Source of the DNA: a virus
Taxonomy: Duplodnaviria > Heunggongvirae > Uroviricota > Caudoviricetes
DNA: 8,225 nt
Strand: one strand, 5' to 3'
Virus record (IMG/VR): IMGVR_UViG_2693429557_000018
Notes under the pieces: generated by a model
What the model was told of the DNA's origin: nothing
What the model saw: only the letters and a program-made list of their open reading frames with translations
Databases searched by the model: none
Part shown: positions 1-8,225 of the stretch, one piece after another
Numbering within the stretch: position 1 is the first letter of the stretch
Layout: each line of letters opens with the position of its first letter
Position numbers and translations under genes: made by a program

Positions 1-65
1 GGTAGTGTCCGCTATTGCCAGTACACCTCATACTGAGGGTACTACGTGATAAGAAAGTAGTTACC

Positions 66-1025
66 ATGAAGATTATCGATAACCTCACCTTTGAACGGGC
101 TAATGAGAAGTTATCGCGGAATGGTATAGCTAATCGTATCCGTAAGGACATTACCATTGCTCAGGATGATTACATTACTAACCTCTTCCCGAAGATGCTG
201 AAATGCGGTCACTGTGGGGGCAATATTGCAATTCACTATAATCATGTACGAACTAAGTATGTTATTTGTCGTAACAGGGAAGAAAAGAAGATCTGCGATG
301 CTAAATCTATCCAGTACATGAGAATTGAAAAGAACATTCTACAGCTTGTCAAAAATGTAGACTTCAATAAATTGATGATGGAAGGTAAGTCGGATTCAGA
401 TTCATTGCTTGCATCATTGCGAGAAGAGTTAAGTACTTTACAGAAAGAGGCAGAAACCTATCAGGTTAAAATTAATGAACGTAAGGCAGCAGGTAAGAAA
501 GCCTCGTTACCATTAATGACGGGTTTAACTGAGGTACAGGATAGAATTGAAGAAATAGAATCTGAGATATTAAATTCAAAGAACATCAAAGAAATCCCTG
601 TATTTGATTTCGATATTAATAAAGTACTTGATCCATTGAATGTCGAGTTACGTGCAAAGTTACGGAAAGAAGTAAGATTAGTACTGAAATCTGTTAAGTA
701 CTGGGTTTTTGAAAAGCGTATATTTGTACAGTTGGAATACTTCAATGATGTCCTATCCCATACGCTTGTGATTGATAACAAGCGGGGCGGGGGTGAAGTA
801 CTACATGAGATCGTAATCTCTGAAACAAGCGGCGAGCGTGTCTACACTGTCAATGAAGAGGGCAAAACCGTTTTCATTGCCTCCGTTACATCTGGTACTG
901 ATATGTGGTCGCTTGCCATTAGCCGTACCAAAATACTTGATGATGTTGGATTGTATCTTAATCTTCTCAAGCGTGAAAAATTTGAGATCATTGTTAATGA
1001 AGATATGATTGATTGGATGGATTAA
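66..1025 (+). CDS. Large serine recombinase, C-terminal zinc-ribbon plus coiled-coil portion; N-terminal catalytic domain not encoded in frame in this window (split, frameshifted or truncated gene)
   Basis: Translation has the recombinase-type zinc-ribbon motif (FPKMLKCGHCGG ... YVICRN ... KKICD, i.e. CxxC...C...C) followed by a long coiled-coil-like stretch (LREELSTLQKEAETYQVKINERK...), the C-terminal module of large serine recombinases. First ATG is at 66 (a TTG at 15 has no RBS). There is an in-frame TAG at 3-5 and stops in the other two forward frames at 34-36 and 47-49, so no upstream reading frame continues into this ORF. Confidence 0.6.
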   Translation: MKIIDNLTFERANEKLSRNGIANRIRKDITIAQDDYITNLFPKMLKCGHCGGNIAIHYNHVRTKYVICRNREEKKICDAKSIQYMRIEKNILQLVKNVDFNKLMMEGKSDSDSLLASLREELSTLQKEAETYQVKINERKAAGKKASLPLMTGLTEVQDRIEEIESEILNSKNIKEIPVFDFDINKVLDPLNVELRAKLRKEVRLVLKSVKYWVFEKRIFVQLEYFNDVLSHTLVIDNKRGGGEVLHEIVISETSGERVYTVNEEGKTVFIASVTSGTDMWSLAISRTKILDDVGLYLNLLKREKFEIIVNEDMIDWMD

Positions 1026-2692: not shown

Positions 2693-3247
2693 ATGAACCC
2701 TAAAATCACTTGGAGATTAATTCCAAATTCAAAACATTACTACGTATCTGAAAATGGCGATGTTTACAATGATAAAACAAAACAGTATATAGCTACGAAA
2801 AACCCATCTAATGGATACAAAAAAGTTTCTATTAATGGCAAATCACTATATGTACATGTTTTGGTTTGTACTTTATTCAATGGTGCTAAACCCATTGGAG
2901 GAAGATACACTGTAGATCATATCGACCGCGATAAAATGAATAACAAAGCAAAAAATTTACGTTGGGTAACTCAGAAGGTTAATAATTCCAATAGAAAGCA
3001 TAAAGGTACTCGTACTCAAAAGCTTACTCTAAAGCAATGGTTAATGATTGTTGGAGAGTACCTTAAAGGACAATTATCTCAATATGCAATCACTAAATGG
3101 TTTTTAAATCAAACTGGTATTAATATTTGCCCTCAGAATATAGGTAAGTTATTCAAAGGTACTACCTATTCAAAATGGTACACAACATATCTTACGAATA
3201 AGCAAAGACAAAGAATACAAAGCCTAACCATTCAACGTAAACCATAA
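2693..3247 (+). CDS. HNH homing endonuclease (NUMOD4-like N-terminus plus HNH_3-type nuclease motif), free-standing
   Basis: N-terminal WRLIPNSKHYYVSENGDVYN (NUMOD4-like), central GYKKVSINGK...YVHVLVC...TVDHIDRDKMNNKAKNLRWVTQKVN (HNH of phage homing endonucleases), basic C-terminal tail; RBS AAGGA 8 nt upstream of ATG 2693. Confidence 0.8.
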   Translation: MNPKITWRLIPNSKHYYVSENGDVYNDKTKQYIATKNPSNGYKKVSINGKSLYVHVLVCTLFNGAKPIGGRYTVDHIDRDKMNNKAKNLRWVTQKVNNSNRKHKGTRTQKLTLKQWLMIVGEYLKGQLSQYAITKWFLNQTGINICPQNIGKLFKGTTYSKWYTTYLTNKQRQRIQSLTIQRKP

Positions 3248-3830: not shown

Positions 3831-3840
3831 TTGTAACTTA

Positions 3841-3923
3841 TTACGGCATATTACGGCATGGATGTATGCCGTAATACGGCAAAAAAAGCCCCTGAAACCC
3901 GCTATTTACCATCAATACGGCAA
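3841..3923. repeat. Cluster of TACGGCA-core repeats (iteron-like): two direct TTACGGCAT copies, one inverted copy forming a 9-bp hairpin, and two AATACGGCAA copies
   Basis: TTACGGCAT at 3841-3849 and 3851-3859; inverted ATGCCGTAA at 3866-3874 (loop GGATGT); AATACGGCAA at 3873-3882 and 3914-3923; A7 run at 3881-3887. Read directly from the sequence. Confidence 0.6.
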
Positions 3924-4293
3924 CTAAGTATAGAGATACGAAATCCATTCCATTTCATTCCATGTATTTCTTTCTCTATCAGTATTCCAAGAAACTGTGA
4001 CTTGCGTCACGAATACTACTCGTCGTGAACTCCTCGTAGTATTGGTTAGTAACGTTGCGTTTTTCTCGCCAGTACTCGAAAACCCGCAAGGCGTTACTAC
4101 TCGCTTTGCTCGATAGATGTTAGTACAGCAAATGAAGTACCTAAAGTGAATTGGTAAGTACGACATGCCCCGCCAGTTCCACAACTCTCGCTCTGGTCAT
4201 TTCCACTACTATGATGCTATTGGATAGCTACATAAAGTACTGGATCAAGTAGGCATTTTTTGTGTACAAAGAGGGAATTAAGAGAGGGATACC

Positions 4294-5037
4294 ATGAACA
4301 GAAAACAATTCATCCAGTCGCATGGTGCTACTTGTAGTAACTGGACTTGGAGTTGGTCATTTGTGAACCACGACAAGAAAATGGTTATCTTTGGTGCATG
4401 GGATGTACAAAAAGAGCAAGAAAGATCAGTCATTCTGAGGGAGCGGTGGAAAACCAAAGTTGTGGAGGGAAAGGAAAGAAAAAATCTTGGATATATTCAA
4501 GCTATTGAACACATTCAATTGATAGCTGAAGGTTATGAGCTTTACACGTTTGATATGGAGCAGGGACGAAACGATGAGAATAGAGATGTAGCTGTTATCA
4601 AACGGTTCACTCCAAAACTTGAAAAACGTTACCTTCGGAAAGAAGGAACAGTTTGGTATGCAGACTTTTTACCTAATCCATTTCCAGATGAAATTACCTC
4701 ACCTGAAAACTACGCTGAGGGTGCAAAAAAGCAAGTTACAGTAAACTCCTACGAGCGTGATCCAAAAGCACGACAGGCTTGTATTGACCATCATGGTACT
4801 TCCTGCGGGTGTTGTGAGTTTAACTTTGAGAAAGTCTATGGTGAACACGCCAAGGGCTTTATACACGTTCATCATATCAAACCGCTACACACAGTAGGCG
4901 AGGATTACGAGGTAAATCCAATTACTGATATGGTTCCACTTTGTCCAAACTGTCACGCAATGGTACATCGCGGTAACGAAGTATTAAGTGTCGAAAGTTT
5001 AAAAGCACTGTTGTTTAAAGACAGCAATAAAATTTGA
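4294..5037 (+). CDS. HNH-family nuclease with an uncharacterised ~160-aa N-terminal domain (candidate restriction/defence nuclease)
   Basis: C-terminal HNH signature CIDHHGTSCGCCEF ... HVHHIKPL ... NPITDMVPLCPNCHAMVH (Cys-rich zinc site, His-His, Asn, terminal His); strong RBS AGAGAGGG 5 nt upstream of ATG 4294. The N-terminal region (QSHGATCSNWTWSWSFVNHDKKMVIFGAWD...) is not recognisable to me. Confidence 0.8.
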   Translation: MNRKQFIQSHGATCSNWTWSWSFVNHDKKMVIFGAWDVQKEQERSVILRERWKTKVVEGKERKNLGYIQAIEHIQLIAEGYELYTFDMEQGRNDENRDVAVIKRFTPKLEKRYLRKEGTVWYADFLPNPFPDEITSPENYAEGAKKQVTVNSYERDPKARQACIDHHGTSCGCCEFNFEKVYGEHAKGFIHVHHIKPLHTVGEDYEVNPITDMVPLCPNCHAMVHRGNEVLSVESLKALLFKDSNKI

Positions 5038-5050
5038 ATTTATTTTAGAC

Positions 5051-5079
5051 TTGATACGACATACTTGAAAAGTTATGAA
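5051..5079 (+). promoter_or_regulatory. Candidate sigma70-type promoter for the 5120..5593 gene
   Basis: TTGATA (5051-5056), 17-nt spacer, TATGAA (5074-5079), about 40 nt upstream of ATG 5120. Pattern match only. Confidence 0.25.
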
Positions 5080-5119
5080 TACAATATGCTTTAAATTAGA
5101 CATGTAAGTTGAGAGAAAA

Positions 5120-5593
5120 ATGAGCATAACAACAATAGCAGCTACATATAAAGATGTGTTAACTATTGCTTTTTCGGCGTTGTCATTTATTATTGCATGT
5201 ACTTCCTTATACTTCTCCGGTAGGGCAGCATGGCATGATAGATCAAGGCTAAAAATAACAGCTGACCTCGTCTACGAGTCTTTTGATGAGGAACCTTATA
5301 AAATCGAGGTGATAGTGATCAATGTTGGTAGGCGTGATGCAGTTTTGGAAGGGATGCTTTGCCATTATGAAAAAGGCATTAGGAGCCATTCATCTCCAAA
5401 AGAGAGCATTGTTATTAAAGAAAAGCAAAGAAAAAAATTTGAATTGGTAAGCTCAGACTTAGTCACGATAGATAATGAATGTGATATTTGTCATTTAGAA
5501 GATATAACTATTTTAGATGTGGAGGGGAATGAACATAAAATCCCTAACTCTCACAGACTCATTGCATTACTTAAGCAAGATAAAAAGACTTAA
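5120..5593 (+). CDS. Membrane-anchored hypothetical protein (157 aa; one N-terminal transmembrane helix)
   Basis: Intact ORF 82 nt downstream of the HNH nuclease gene; N-terminal hydrophobic segment (LTIAFSALSFIIACTSLYF), then a soluble domain with a CDICH motif; GAGAG upstream of the ATG. Confidence 0.55.
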   Translation: MSITTIAATYKDVLTIAFSALSFIIACTSLYFSGRAAWHDRSRLKITADLVYESFDEEPYKIEVIVINVGRRDAVLEGMLCHYEKGIRSHSSPKESIVIKEKQRKKFELVSSDLVTIDNECDICHLEDITILDVEGNEHKIPNSHRLIALLKQDKKT

Positions 5594-5849: not shown

Positions 5850-6518
5850 CTAATTAGAGAAAACGAATAAGTTATTCATGTCCTTTTTCAAGGTTGCATG
5901 TGCTTCTATTAAACTATCAAATGTATCTACTAATAACTTTCCATAGCTGACATTGTAATGATATCTATCATGAATGTCATTTATATCAAAACTTATCGCT
6001 TCCCTCAATGTTCCTAAAGCAATTTGATTACTGAAGAAATAATTATTGAATATAGCTTCATCTTTTGGCGATACTTTCCAAAAGGTAAGTGATTGCAATT
6101 CGCTTTTTAATGAGGCTAACTTAATGTTTAATAGATCGATAACTTCTCGTTCAGTTTTAACTAAATGTGCGAAATTTTTTGGTTCTATATCTGGTTCAGT
6201 ATTGTTAAGGTTGCATATATTTTCATATGTTTTCAACATCTCCAACGAAAAAAGATCGCAATTAGTCCAGAACTTAGTAACTTGATTTAAAGCATTTTCC
6301 TTTATTTTAGTTTGAAACCAATTTTTAGCGTTCCATGCTGCATATAGGGCTGCTCCAGCCATAATGAGATTGGCAATAGAACTAACCCAGTCACTAACCG
6401 ATCCCCACTCGAAACCTTCAGAACCAACAAAGAGTGATTTTATTAGTACTAAAATTACAACAACCAGTAATACTGCTACGGTCGATAAAAGAACGATATT
6501 TAATTTTCTACAATCCAT
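5850..6518 (-). CDS. Hypothetical membrane protein (222 aa; two N-terminal transmembrane segments, helical C-terminal domain)
   Basis: Intact minus-strand ORF, AT-rich; N-terminus LLSTVAVLLVVVILVLI plus a second hydrophobic segment VSSIANLIMAGAALYAAW. Convergent with the 5120..5593 gene. No recognisable catalytic motif. Confidence 0.55.
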   Translation of the reverse strand: MDCRKLNIVLLSTVAVLLVVVILVLIKSLFVGSEGFEWGSVSDWVSSIANLIMAGAALYAAWNAKNWFQTKIKENALNQVTKFWTNCDLFSLEMLKTYENICNLNNTEPDIEPKNFAHLVKTEREVIDLLNIKLASLKSELQSLTFWKVSPKDEAIFNNYFFSNQIALGTLREAISFDINDIHDRYHYNVSYGKLLVDTFDSLIEAHATLKKDMNNLFVFSN

Positions 6519-7154: not shown

Positions 7155-7706
7155 ATGAACATTGATAATTGGGCAATACCGATAACAAGTTTGGGTGGTC
7201 AGTTGCTGGGGGTTGAGTTGGTCAGCCATGTAGAACGCGAGGGAATCAGGCAGATCGGCCTATGGGAAGAAGAAGTACTTCATGGGCAACTAATGCTTAT
7301 TGAAAGCAAGGCGGCATGGTTCAGGGATAACGGTTTGTATTGTGTGATTACTACTGGCCGTGGTGAACCATACGAGTACTTACCATTCCTTCGGCAGATG
7401 ACAAGGGATATGAAAGTACATAACCAGCAGTGGCTTGATGATCTCGGTGTACATGGTGGTTCTGCTATTCCTCTGGTTACAGGTGATTTCGAGGTTGCCC
7501 GATTAAATAGAAGGTACACAGAAGAGAACATTGACCGTCTGATCTTTCCAGTACTCATAAAAAGCATTCGCCAGTACTGCGAGAAGGTGATCGTACCCGT
7601 CAGAGATAAAACGTATTACCCAATTCTCAGAGAGGCCGGTGTATGGGCGGTACAGGGAGAGTTCAGGCCAATGCGTTTTGAGCAATGTGAAAAATTAATA
7701 GGATAA
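7155..7706 (+). CDS. Degenerate EAL-like domain protein (183 aa), probably catalytically inactive
   Basis: Motifs resembling the EAL fold in the right order: GVELVSH in place of the EAL motif, LDDLGVHGGS resembling DDFGTGYSS, GVWAVQGEFRPMRF resembling the QG-x-x-F-x-P C-terminal motif. The domain is shorter than a canonical EAL domain and key residues look substituted. Pattern match by eye only. Confidence 0.5.
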   Translation: MNIDNWAIPITSLGGQLLGVELVSHVEREGIRQIGLWEEEVLHGQLMLIESKAAWFRDNGLYCVITTGRGEPYEYLPFLRQMTRDMKVHNQQWLDDLGVHGGSAIPLVTGDFEVARLNRRYTEENIDRLIFPVLIKSIRQYCEKVIVPVRDKTYYPILREAGVWAVQGEFRPMRFEQCEKLIG

Positions 7707-8081: not shown

Positions 8082-8225
8082 ATGGGAAAGGTAATGGTGA
8101 TTTTGTTAGTACTGGCTGGGGTACTCTTCAACATTGCAGGTGAGGATGCACCCCAGCCACAGTACACGGACAATGAGTGGATTTGCCCCTATATTTCCAG
8201 ACATCTGTTATCACTTAACCCATTA
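8082..8225 (+). CDS. 3'-truncated ORF with a hydrophobic N-terminus (signal peptide or membrane anchor)
   Basis: ATG at 8082 (second in-frame ATG at 8094) starts 7 nt after the lipoprotein stop; translation MGKVMVILLVLAGVLFNIAGEDAPQPQYTDNEWICPYISRHLLSLNPL runs open to the window end. Confidence 0.4.
   Translation, partial: MGKVMVILLVLAGVLFNIAGEDAPQPQYTDNEWICPYISRHLLSLNPL

Follow-up and report, generated by a model that had tools for sequence, protein, structure and literature searches.

A putative single-gene type IV restriction endonuclease with a seemingly undescribed N-terminal domain among the cargo of a Shigella sonnei island

Analysis of the window (the whole stretch of 8,225 nt that was examined) indicated that its 247-aa HNH protein is probably a modification-dependent restriction endonuclease (type IV) that is self-contained and encoded by one gene. 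That gene belongs to the cargo of a Shigella sonnei island with a serine recombinase. The gene appears to have the organisation of a type IV system, a modular sensor fused to a nuclease and a cognate methyltransferase not encoded alongside. The N-terminal domain, here called N-dom (about 125 aa, Trp-rich and beta-barrel-like), would be a very divergent SRA/PUA-like module that recognises a feature of foreign DNA missing from the host; this feature would most likely be a base with a modification or hypermodification, perhaps flipped into an aromatic pocket. A flexible linker of about 30 aa would connect this reader with a zinc-binding HNH domain of the McrA type, and the HNH domain would nick or cut the DNA nearby. 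Dam or Dcm methylation in its normal sequence context is probably not the target, because the enterobacterial hosts are themselves Dam+ Dcm+. We infer DNA binding, modification dependence, a target of this kind and an anti-phage function for the 247-aa protein. The sequence-only reading of this DNA had paired the nuclease with a membrane-anchored protein; that reading is corrected here to a one-gene system. The features are listed in Table 1.

Table 1. Position and strand of the features discussed (positions are those of the window)
Feature	Position	Strand	Basis or remark
Large serine recombinase of the island, C-terminal part	15..1025	+	Zn_ribbon_recom E 6e-10
Conserved gene-free region, 463 nt, upstream of the HNH gene	3831..4293	.	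90-92% nt identity in three other genera
N-dom+HNH nuclease gene	4294..5037	+	ORF list; 247 aa, stop included
N-dom (residues 1-125), candidate DNA/modified-base sensor	4294..4668	+	
Linker (residues 126-155)	4669..4758	+	mostly low-confidence in predicted structure
McrA-type HNH (beta-beta-alpha-Me, zinc-binding) nuclease domain (residues 156-247)	4759..5034	+	
157-aa single-pass membrane protein gene, island cargo	5120..5593	+	predicted TM helix residues 13-31
222-aa membrane-anchored protein gene, FEWGSVSDW motif family	5850..6518	-	predicted TM helix residues 8-26

The HNH nuclease and its N-terminal domain

The product of the nuclease ORF is exactly the protein quoted in the sequence-only reading, and 484 contigs carry it unchanged under the label 'HNH endonuclease [Shigella sonnei]'. 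Its homologues formed 906 clusters with alignments spanning the full length. The C-terminal HNH motif noticed in the sequence-only reading was confirmed by a match of Pfam HNH PF01844 to residues 171-226 (E 3.3e-6, 27.6 bits against a cut-off of 21.4), and residues C171, C174, H193, H194, C217, N219, C220, H221 and H225 (CxxC...HH...CPNCH...H) were invariant among 44 aligned homologues. The protein, with the catalytic His/Asn/His and the CxxC...CxxC zinc ligands intact, therefore belongs to the HNH superfamily. Profile and PDB sequence comparisons supported the McrA type that had been proposed, the subtype appearing McrA-like rather than HNH_3.

The predicted structure indicated that the N-terminal region of about 160 aa singled out earlier, which indeed has no known-domain match, comprises a folded part of about 125 aa and a linker, of which residues 130-152 had pLDDT values <50. 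The C-terminal part of the linker (E142 G143 ... N151 E154 R155) contains conserved residues and runs into the HNH domain, and alignments with EcoKMcrA and ScoMcrA begin at residues 141-144.

N-dom is highly conserved and carries the signature GATCxNWxWSWSF...FGAWD; six of its Trp residues were invariant among the full-length homologues. No Pfam, NCBIfam or PADLOC model matched residues 1 to about 160, PADLOC and NCBIfam identifying the HNH part only. Likewise phmmer found nothing for N-dom among PDB sequences, the family profile also being empty at E<=10, and Foldseek against the PDB gave nothing significant. The claim of an undescribed domain was borne out at the sequence level, where N-dom is an undescribed family. 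The statement that it has no SRA hallmarks held for the sequence: PF02182 (SAD_SRA) gave no match in the 247-aa protein at E<=0.1, and when the N-dom profile was compared by hhalign with the SRA domain of a relative (P0257), the probability was 0.4%. The top structural neighbours of N-dom were overwhelmingly modified-DNA readers, and the fold match to SRA was weak. PF01878 (EVE) was absent from the 247-aa protein, and hhalign against the EVE domain of another relative (P0218) gave 0.3%; both hhalign comparisons are of low power because their targets were single sequences. The pI of N-dom ranged from 5.2 to 9.8 across the family, and the domain is therefore not uniformly basic. The null SRA and EVE profile comparisons, this variable pI and the restriction of PADLOC and NCBIfam matches to HNH count against a type IV assignment.

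When 1.84 billion representatives were searched with the domain alone, 236 N-dom proteins were retrieved, and 28 long ones were scanned for further domains. HNH was present in 20 of the 28, three of which also carried EVE and one a bona fide SAD_SRA (E 4e-45), while three proteins carried NOV_C (PD-(D/E)XK-like), one of them with DUF3427; MUG113 (GIY-YIG-type) and VWA were found once each. The domain orders included EVE+N-dom+HNH, N-dom+EVE+HNH and N-dom+DUF3427+NOV_C, the last being the YenY4I layout with N-dom where EVE stands. N-dom therefore combines with three nuclease superfamilies and occurs in tandem with EVE, SRA and DUF3427. Since N-dom and SRA co-occur in one protein (P0257), N-dom is a module distinct from SRA. 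These fusions and the replacement of EVE support the suggestion that N-dom behaves like a type IV reader module. N-dom also occurs as many stand-alone proteins of about 120-135 aa, and these together with the VWA fusion may indicate that the ligand is not DNA.

The same observations bear on a reading, which we regard as unlikely, in which N-dom senses DNA structure, ssDNA, a nucleotide signal or a phage protein independently of modification and frees the HNH domain, possibly leading to abortive infection. The VWA and stand-alone forms, the weak SRA fold match, the variable pI and the defence-island or mobile context would all suit such a nuclease; however, apart from VWA, every identified partner of N-dom is a nuclease or a known modified-base reader (EVE, SRA, DUF3427), and the modified-DNA readers that dominate its structural neighbours argue in the same direction. 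It is conceivable, although we hold this only tentatively, that N-dom is a new class of modified-DNA reader, remotely SRA-like, with a pocket of conserved Trp residues and a specificity unlike those of SRA, EVE, YTH, wH, SBD and iEndoIII. A hypermodified pyrimidine, a 7-deazapurine or a glycosylated base would then be candidate targets, the N-dom nucleases would form a large untapped type IV family, and those N-dom proteins that stand alone would serve as free readers or as regulators.

Literature searches found the EVE-HNH, SRA-HNH, wH, CMoRE and END nucleases and not N-dom, a full-text search for 'WSWSF' returned an unrelated context only, and no biochemical or phage-challenge evidence was found in the literature for any N-dom+HNH member.

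Distribution and genomic context

The N-dom+HNH protein was identified in at least 558 species of many phyla. Full-length copies were present on 101 plasmids, mostly conjugative and many of them Klebsiella and Enterobacter plasmids, and the gene occurred in 10 of 5,426 complete E. coli genomes, while the 50,697 phage genomes searched contained no full-length copy. Its genomic contexts were entirely different between lineages; neighbours in relatives included Gabija, type I R-M, a methyl-directed REase-like DUF6998 protein, integrases and transposases, and no conserved neighbour gene was found, the best neighbour cluster being present at 7 of 82 loci. The distribution of the gene is patchy and mobile. 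The DUF6998 (mREase_II-like) protein was considered as a partner and rejected, its tight coupling being confined to the E. coli lineages and not kept family-wide.

Scans with Pfam, NCBIfam and PADLOC detected no methyltransferase within the window, and near the related genes a crude motif test detected methyltransferase motifs at 4 of 83 loci; type I HsdM was present at three. Neither a methyltransferase nor an immunity gene is a conserved neighbour, in agreement with the type IV-like setting suggested for the gene.

The recombinase C-terminus at the start of the window corresponds in position to full-length recombinases of 597-644 aa at loci L001, L084, L088 and L091. An IS2 end lies at 8153-8225, and in Kluyvera an island of the same type was found with msyB on one side and a gene for an MFS transporter on the other; the view of the nuclease gene as mobile-element cargo is thus upheld. 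Complete E. coli genomes contained no megablast match to the locus. In plasmids and phages the matches were confined to the ends of the window: the IS2 end was matched in both sets, and 36 nt at the start of the window were matched in phages. A genuine homing-type endonuclease (NUMOD4+HNH_3) is encoded at 2693-3247, 1 kb upstream of the 247-aa gene. The promoter of the HNH gene presumably lies in the conserved gene-free region that precedes it. As an ncRNA partner this region was discarded: the HNH genes of Kluyvera and E. coli are not preceded by it, the z-score of the region was modest, and Rfam and tRNA scans of the window gave no match.

It is highly improbable that the 247-aa protein has no role in defence and is instead a selfish endonuclease of the homing or mobile-element kind, or an HNH protein of the phage cos/terminase-associated kind. 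Its mobile island and the NUMOD4 neighbour would fit this, but the gene is free-standing, outside any intron, intein or other gene, its HNH domain is of the McrA-like PF01844 kind, and the phage genomes lack a full-length copy. The combination of the same N-dom with EVE, SRA and DUF3427 readers and the wholly different contexts between lineages also speak against it. Neither the location (intron, intein or phage) nor the domains (HNH_3 or NUMOD) of homing endonucleases and phage HNH proteins were found for the 247-aa protein.

Hardly any weight is given to a housekeeping nuclease of DNA repair or damage processing that recognises damaged bases. SRA/PUA-like and other base-flipping folds are able to read such bases, the iEndoIII sensor of END nucleases offers a precedent (PMC12191111), and the protein is highly conserved across phyla; against this, the gene is strain-specific and patchy, as its rarity in E. 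coli illustrates, it resides on islands and conjugative plasmids, and synteny with repair genes is not conserved.

The neighbouring membrane protein genes

The HNH gene is followed on the same strand, after the 82-nt gap reported earlier (5038-5119), by the gene for the 157-aa protein. This is a real gene with 32 clusters of homologues, all enterobacterial, and no Pfam match, and its product has a single predicted N-terminal TM helix, as had been described. The promoter proposed for it fared less well: a -35/-10-like site, ACGACA-18-TACAAT, does lie at 5056-5085, but promoter-like sites were no commoner in the region than in shuffled sequence (7 against 9.0 +/- 3.1), and the gene's own promoter is therefore only putative.

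The idea that the 157-aa protein is a partner or effector of the nuclease in a two-gene module was not supported, and we consider it very unlikely. The two genes are adjacent in Shigella, E. ludwigii and C. koseri with a gap of 79-82 nt, no terminator-like site was found between them, and in every lineage sampled the 157-aa family occurs in an island that also carries this HNH gene. However, a 157-aa homologue was found within 6 kb of the HNH gene at none of 83 related loci, including those with HNH homologues 87-93% identical (L001, L004 and L005; Kluyvera, an Enterobacter MAG and Leclercia), and the plasmid copies of the HNH gene also lack it at their side. Adjacency is kept only in the three hosts named, which share one island type (L088, L091-93). 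In E. coli (L084-87) the 155-aa member of the family follows an unrelated 227-aa gene, and the HNH gene lies 1.3 kb away, beyond a convergent gene; its tight coupling there is to the DUF6998 gene instead. The HNH family extends across many phyla while the 157-aa family is enterobacterial; co-occurrence of the two genes is not conserved across the family, and the 157-aa protein is best regarded as an unrelated cargo neighbour.

The convergent membrane protein noted downstream is likewise present. The 222-aa family comprises 42 enterobacterial clusters with two to three paralogues per island and no Pfam match, and the Shigella copy is named 'Phage abortive infection protein' in UniProt. Both membrane protein genes, for 157 and 222 aa, count as independent cargo.

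Significance and comparison with known systems

Type IV enzymes are a major layer of immunity against DNA-modifying phages and serve as tools for mapping epigenetic bases (MspJI, AbaSI, PvuRts1I). To our knowledge, few type IV sensors have been described: SRA, EVE, YTH and ASCH, DUF3427, winged helix, SBD, NEco and iEndoIII. Further sensors have been stated to await discovery (PMC12191111), and the properties of N-dom fit such a sensor, as it has no Pfam or NCBIfam model and occurs in at least 558 species, on about 100 plasmids and with three nuclease superfamilies. If N-dom reads a modification, a new enzyme family would be defined, whose members could restrict the entry of plasmids and phages in clinical Enterobacteriaceae and could yield a reagent with a new specificity.

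Like the SRA-HNH enzymes of the TagI and ScoA3IV/Sco5333 type (PDB 6ghs; PMC6765204; PMC4333417), the 247-aa protein would have an N-terminal beta-rich reader of about 125-150 aa, a linker and a C-terminal HNH domain, and it is likewise encoded by a single gene with the cognate methyltransferase absent. It differs from them in lacking PF02182, in the null SRA profile comparison and in the motif GATCxNWxWSWSF...FGAWD, which is present in no known SRA model; TagI was not recovered by sequence search of the PDB with the 247-aa protein. With no recognisable SAD_SRA, the protein does not appear to belong to this family.

The N-terminal 5mC-reading 'NEco' domain of EcoKMcrA (PDB 6ghc) was not found in the 247-aa protein, and ScoMcrA (SBD-SRA-HNH; PDB 5zmm/5zmn), a phosphorothioate- and 5mC-dependent enzyme of 561 aa, has extra domains. 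The ScoMcrA domain superposed on N-dom is presumably its SRA domain, since all other structural matches were SRA domains. The NCBIfam model PT-DNA_restrict (NF045808) scored 17.9 bits against a cut-off of 180, aligning residues 126-228 and only the HNH part, so the protein is apparently not a phosphorothioate-dependent SBD-HNH enzyme.

Nor does it seem to be an EVE-HNH enzyme of the VcaM4I/TspA15I kind, as EVE is absent from it and is a separate, additional domain in some relatives. For PUA-HNH enzymes, the absence of a methyltransferase neighbour was a criterion of Lutz et al. (PMC6765204). The modular reader-nuclease logic of VcaM4I and TspA15I (EVE-HNH) and YenY4I (EVE-DUF3427-PD-(D/E)XK), described by Lutz et al. 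in 2019 (PMC6765204), is common to the N-dom nucleases, in which N-dom stands beside EVE or in its place while the layout is otherwise identical.

The N-terminal domain and its nuclease partner

Analysis of the HNH gene indicated that the 247-aa product quoted in the sequence-only reading is the exact translation of the ORF, and the C-terminal HNH motif described there as canonical was recovered by Pfam above the curated threshold (residues 171-226). The same part of the protein (about residues 141-236) was matched by PADLOC 'mREase_IV' models and, among PDB sequences, by the HNH domains of EcoKMcrA (6ghc, E 3.4e-5) and ScoMcrA (5zmm). The zinc ligands and catalytic residues C171, C174, H193, H194, C217, N219, C220, H221 and H225 were invariant in 44 diverse homologues.

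Residues 1-140 had no match in Pfam, NCBIfam, PADLOC or PDB sequences, and no PDB sequence matched the family profile of the N-terminal domain (N-dom, residues 1-125) even at E<=10. By sequence the proposal of an N-terminal part without a recognised domain was borne out, but its length of about 160 aa was not, as the folded part of the predicted models comprises about 125 aa, followed by a low-confidence linker of roughly 30 aa. Homologues of the full-length protein formed 906 clusters at 90% identity, and N-dom, with the signature GATCxNWxWSWSF...FGAWD, is as conserved as the HNH domain. Six tryptophans (17, 19, 21, 36, 52 and 121) are invariant among the full-length homologues; once more distant stand-alone copies of N-dom were added, only F6, W21 and W36 were still invariant and W17, W52 and W121 were at least 90% conserved. 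Judged by its sequence, N-dom is a family for which current libraries hold no model.

A search with N-dom alone, covering 1.84 billion representatives, returned 236 proteins (161 at E<=1e-10) in which the domain is N-terminal, internal or C-terminal, and many of which are stand-alone proteins of 120-135 aa. Among 28 long N-dom proteins scanned with Pfam and PADLOC, N-dom+HNH was the majority architecture. Also found were EVE+N-dom+HNH (P0138 and P0149, numbered as proteins of this search), N-dom+EVE+HNH (P0218), N-dom+SAD_SRA+HNH_2 (P0257, SRA E 4e-45), N-dom+NOV_C (P0145 and P0194, the C-terminus resembling PD-T4-1 and PDC-S36), N-dom+DUF3427+NOV_C (P0187), N-dom+MUG113, a GIY-YIG-type nuclease (P0217), and VWA+N-dom (P0242). 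The layout of P0187 is that of YenY4I, a PUA-like+DUF3427+PD-(D/E)XK enzyme preferring 5mC and 5hmC DNA (PMC6765204), with N-dom replacing the EVE/PUA-like domain. By its fusion to three unrelated nuclease superfamilies, and its occurrence in tandem with three established readers of modified bases, N-dom shows the behaviour that defines a sensor module of type IV (modification-dependent) restriction enzymes. In several longer N-dom proteins (P0123, P0129, P0135, P0141 and P0221) 150-300 residues, which separate N-dom from the nuclease domain or replace the nuclease, lacked any Pfam match, and P0135 (471 aa) had no match at all; these stretches may contain further undescribed reader or effector domains.

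The AlphaFold2 model of isolated N-dom, built from a 39-sequence alignment, was confident (pLDDT 91, pTM 0.85), its elements being an alpha helix, three strands, a short helix, two strands, a long helix and four strands. Fold comparison scored ScoMcrA highest (5zmm 6.6, 5zmn 6.3), followed by SUVH5 SRA (5.3), TagI (5.1), SUVH6 (4.9), PvuRts1I and AbaSI (4.6), KRYPTONITE (4.5), UHRF1 SRA (4.2-4.3), SauUSI and LpnPI (4.2), MspJI (3.9), the PUA-like YTH and Lon-N (3.2-3.5) and AspBHI (2.8), scores that are modest, at 5-9% identity. Hjc scored 4.5. SRA-type matches recurred with the full-length model, besides HNH matches. Foldseek with N-dom gave nothing significant (best E 0.57), and profile comparison of N-dom with one SRA and one EVE sequence was null. 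A very divergent SRA/PUA-like barrel is the most plausible reading of the modelled fold. Identity with NEco, the 5mC-reading domain of EcoKMcrA, was ruled out since 6ghc was missing among the structural matches of N-dom.

Distribution and neighbours

Relatives of the N-dom+HNH gene are encoded in at least 558 species genomes, and the best 80 loci, mostly with full-length copies, derive from Proteobacteria, Verrucomicrobiota, Planctomycetota, Bacteroidota, Chloroflexota, Armatimonadota, Gemmatimonadota, Myxococcota and others. Matches were found on 207 plasmids, mostly conjugative and many from Klebsiella or Enterobacter; 101 plasmids carry full-length copies, and the sole annotation of plasmid copies is 'HNH endonuclease'. 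The full architecture was present in none of 50,697 phage genomes, where matches were limited to the HNH part. The MAGs OZ252002.1 (loci L029 and L055) and Armatimonadota SZAS-3 (L021 and L065) each carry two copies at distant loci, and in Methylophaga a second N-dom-like stretch is present just upstream of the HNH gene (L038:5158-5267), possibly as a tandem, stand-alone N-dom gene.

When the ORFs lying up to 4.5 kb from the gene at 82 loci were clustered, no conserved neighbour emerged; the top cluster, a MoxR-like ATPase, was present at seven, in related taxa. Methyltransferase motifs were found by a crude test at 4 of 83 HNH loci and type I HsdM at three. Neighbours include Gabija GajA/GajB, an Aga/Hachiman-like REase, integrases, transposases and serine recombinases.

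The membrane protein encoded next to the nuclease had been proposed as its partner. The 82-nt gap and the single N-terminal transmembrane helix are as described, and no terminator-like site was found between the two genes; the promoter suggested for the second gene corresponds to a -35/-10-like site in the gap, a kind of site no commoner here than in shuffled sequence. The partnership itself was not supported by tblastn, which found a homologue of the 157-aa protein at none of 83 HNH loci extending up to 6 kb on each side of the gene, among them 87-93% identical HNH copies in Kluyvera, an Enterobacter MAG and Leclercia. The 157-aa family (32 clusters, no Pfam match) is enterobacterial without exception. 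A homologue of the 157-aa gene directly follows the HNH gene in E. ludwigii and C. koseri, while in E. coli a 155-aa homologue is preceded by an unrelated 227-aa gene, whose product has no family match, and the HNH gene lies 1.3 kb downstream, past a convergent membrane-protein gene. That the two genes are neighbours in the window is a matter of linkage within a single island type and not of a family-wide functional pairing; an interaction of the two proteins specific to this lineage is quite improbable.

The island and its cargo

Features of the window
Feature	Position	Strand	Remarks
NUMOD4+HNH_3 homing-type endonuclease	2693-3247	+	PADLOC HEase E 1e-18
Gene-free stretch	3831-4293		463 nt; GC 0.43 vs about 0.33-0.36 around
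247-aa N-dom+HNH protein	4294-5037	+
157-aa protein	5120-5593	+	predicted transmembrane helix, residues 13-31
222-aa protein	5850-6518	-	membrane-anchored
183-aa EAL-like protein	7155-7706	+	NCBIfam PRK11596, E 2.7e-5
IS2 terminus	8153-8225		right edge; 91-100% identity to IS2 copies of many plasmids and phages

The assignment to mobile-element cargo agrees with both edges of the window, the left one carrying the C-terminus of a large serine recombinase and the right one the IS2 end, and with an island of this type that in Kluyvera is found between msyB and an MFS transporter gene. The HNH, 157-aa and 222-aa proteins are each identical to Shigella sonnei proteins (400-480 contigs). Since the order differs in E. 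coli and 0 of 83 HNH loci have a homologue of the 157-aa protein, the cargo (HNH gene, 157-aa gene, members of the 222-aa family and DUF6998) looks like shuffled single-gene cassettes.

The convergent membrane protein reported downstream is present. It belongs to a family of ~220-260-aa membrane proteins with an N-terminal anchor and the motif 'FEWGSVSDW(I/V)SS' (42 clusters, enterobacteria only, no Pfam match), with 2-3 divergent paralogues per island (L001:7144-7902, 8862-9527 and 12633-13322; L088:5895-8058); in UniProt the Shigella copy bears the name 'Phage abortive infection protein'. In E. coli a DUF6998 gene, whose product matches the PADLOC 'methyl-directed type II REase' (E 4.9e-62), lies 0-3 nt downstream of the HNH gene. 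Such a tandem of two putative modification-dependent nucleases was seen in two island types that differ from each other (positions noted: L084:6759-8279, L095:6004-7523 and L001:6304-7098); the E. coli version of the HNH gene, and likewise the pair, was found in 10 of 5,426 complete E. coli genomes.

The NUMOD4+HNH_3 endonuclease forms part of the backbone that is conserved among islands: the Kluyvera copy is 89% identical, and L006, L008 and L088 have more distant ones. The 183-aa protein, from a short stand-alone island gene, resembles the C-terminal half of an EAL cyclic-di-GMP phosphodiesterase, and its distant relative in L088 (30% identity) is PF00563 EAL. A DUF4326/DUF488/dual-OB triplet adjoins HNH-bearing cargo in two different island types (L088:8965-10474, L095:8081-9794), with mSLOG accompanying DUF4326 in L088.

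At the start of the gene-free stretch ATTACGGCAT occurs twice as a direct repeat and once inverted. Its nucleotide identity in Enterobacter, E. ludwigii and C. koseri islands is 90-92%, equal to the conservation of the flanking genes, and a core (4055-4159, 80-86%) lies upstream of different cargo in E. coli (L084:3749-3863) and Buttiauxella (L008:4490-4565). No Rfam match was found in the stretch, and its RNA fold z-scores were -2.6 and -2.1; possible roles are those of a promoter or regulatory element at cargo junctions, or of an origin.

Proposed function and comparison with known enzymes

N-dom would bind foreign DNA carrying a base modification absent from the host, the modified base possibly being flipped into an aromatic pocket, and the tethered McrA-type HNH domain would then nick or cleave nearby DNA. 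Dimeric action is probable, as in TagI and EcoKMcrA. As the host enterobacteria are Dam+ Dcm+, neither of these methylations is likely to be the target in its native context; 5hmC, glucosyl-hmC, other hypermodified bases or 5mC in other contexts would be more likely. A free-standing nuclease with neither immunity gene nor methyltransferase must itself discriminate self from non-self, a need that fits modification dependence.

A literature search found no paper describing a member of the N-dom+HNH family. The logic of joining a reader to an HNH domain is already well known; the candidate sensor family is large, unannotated and common on clinical plasmids. The proposed mode of action is closest to that of the SRA-HNH enzymes TagI and ScoA3IV/Sco5333, and of EcoKMcrA. 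The 247-aa protein falls outside the SRA-HNH, EVE-HNH and SBD-HNH groups at the sequence level and outside that of EcoKMcrA (NEco), and is best filed as a putative type IV HNH enzyme with an undescribed sensor domain.
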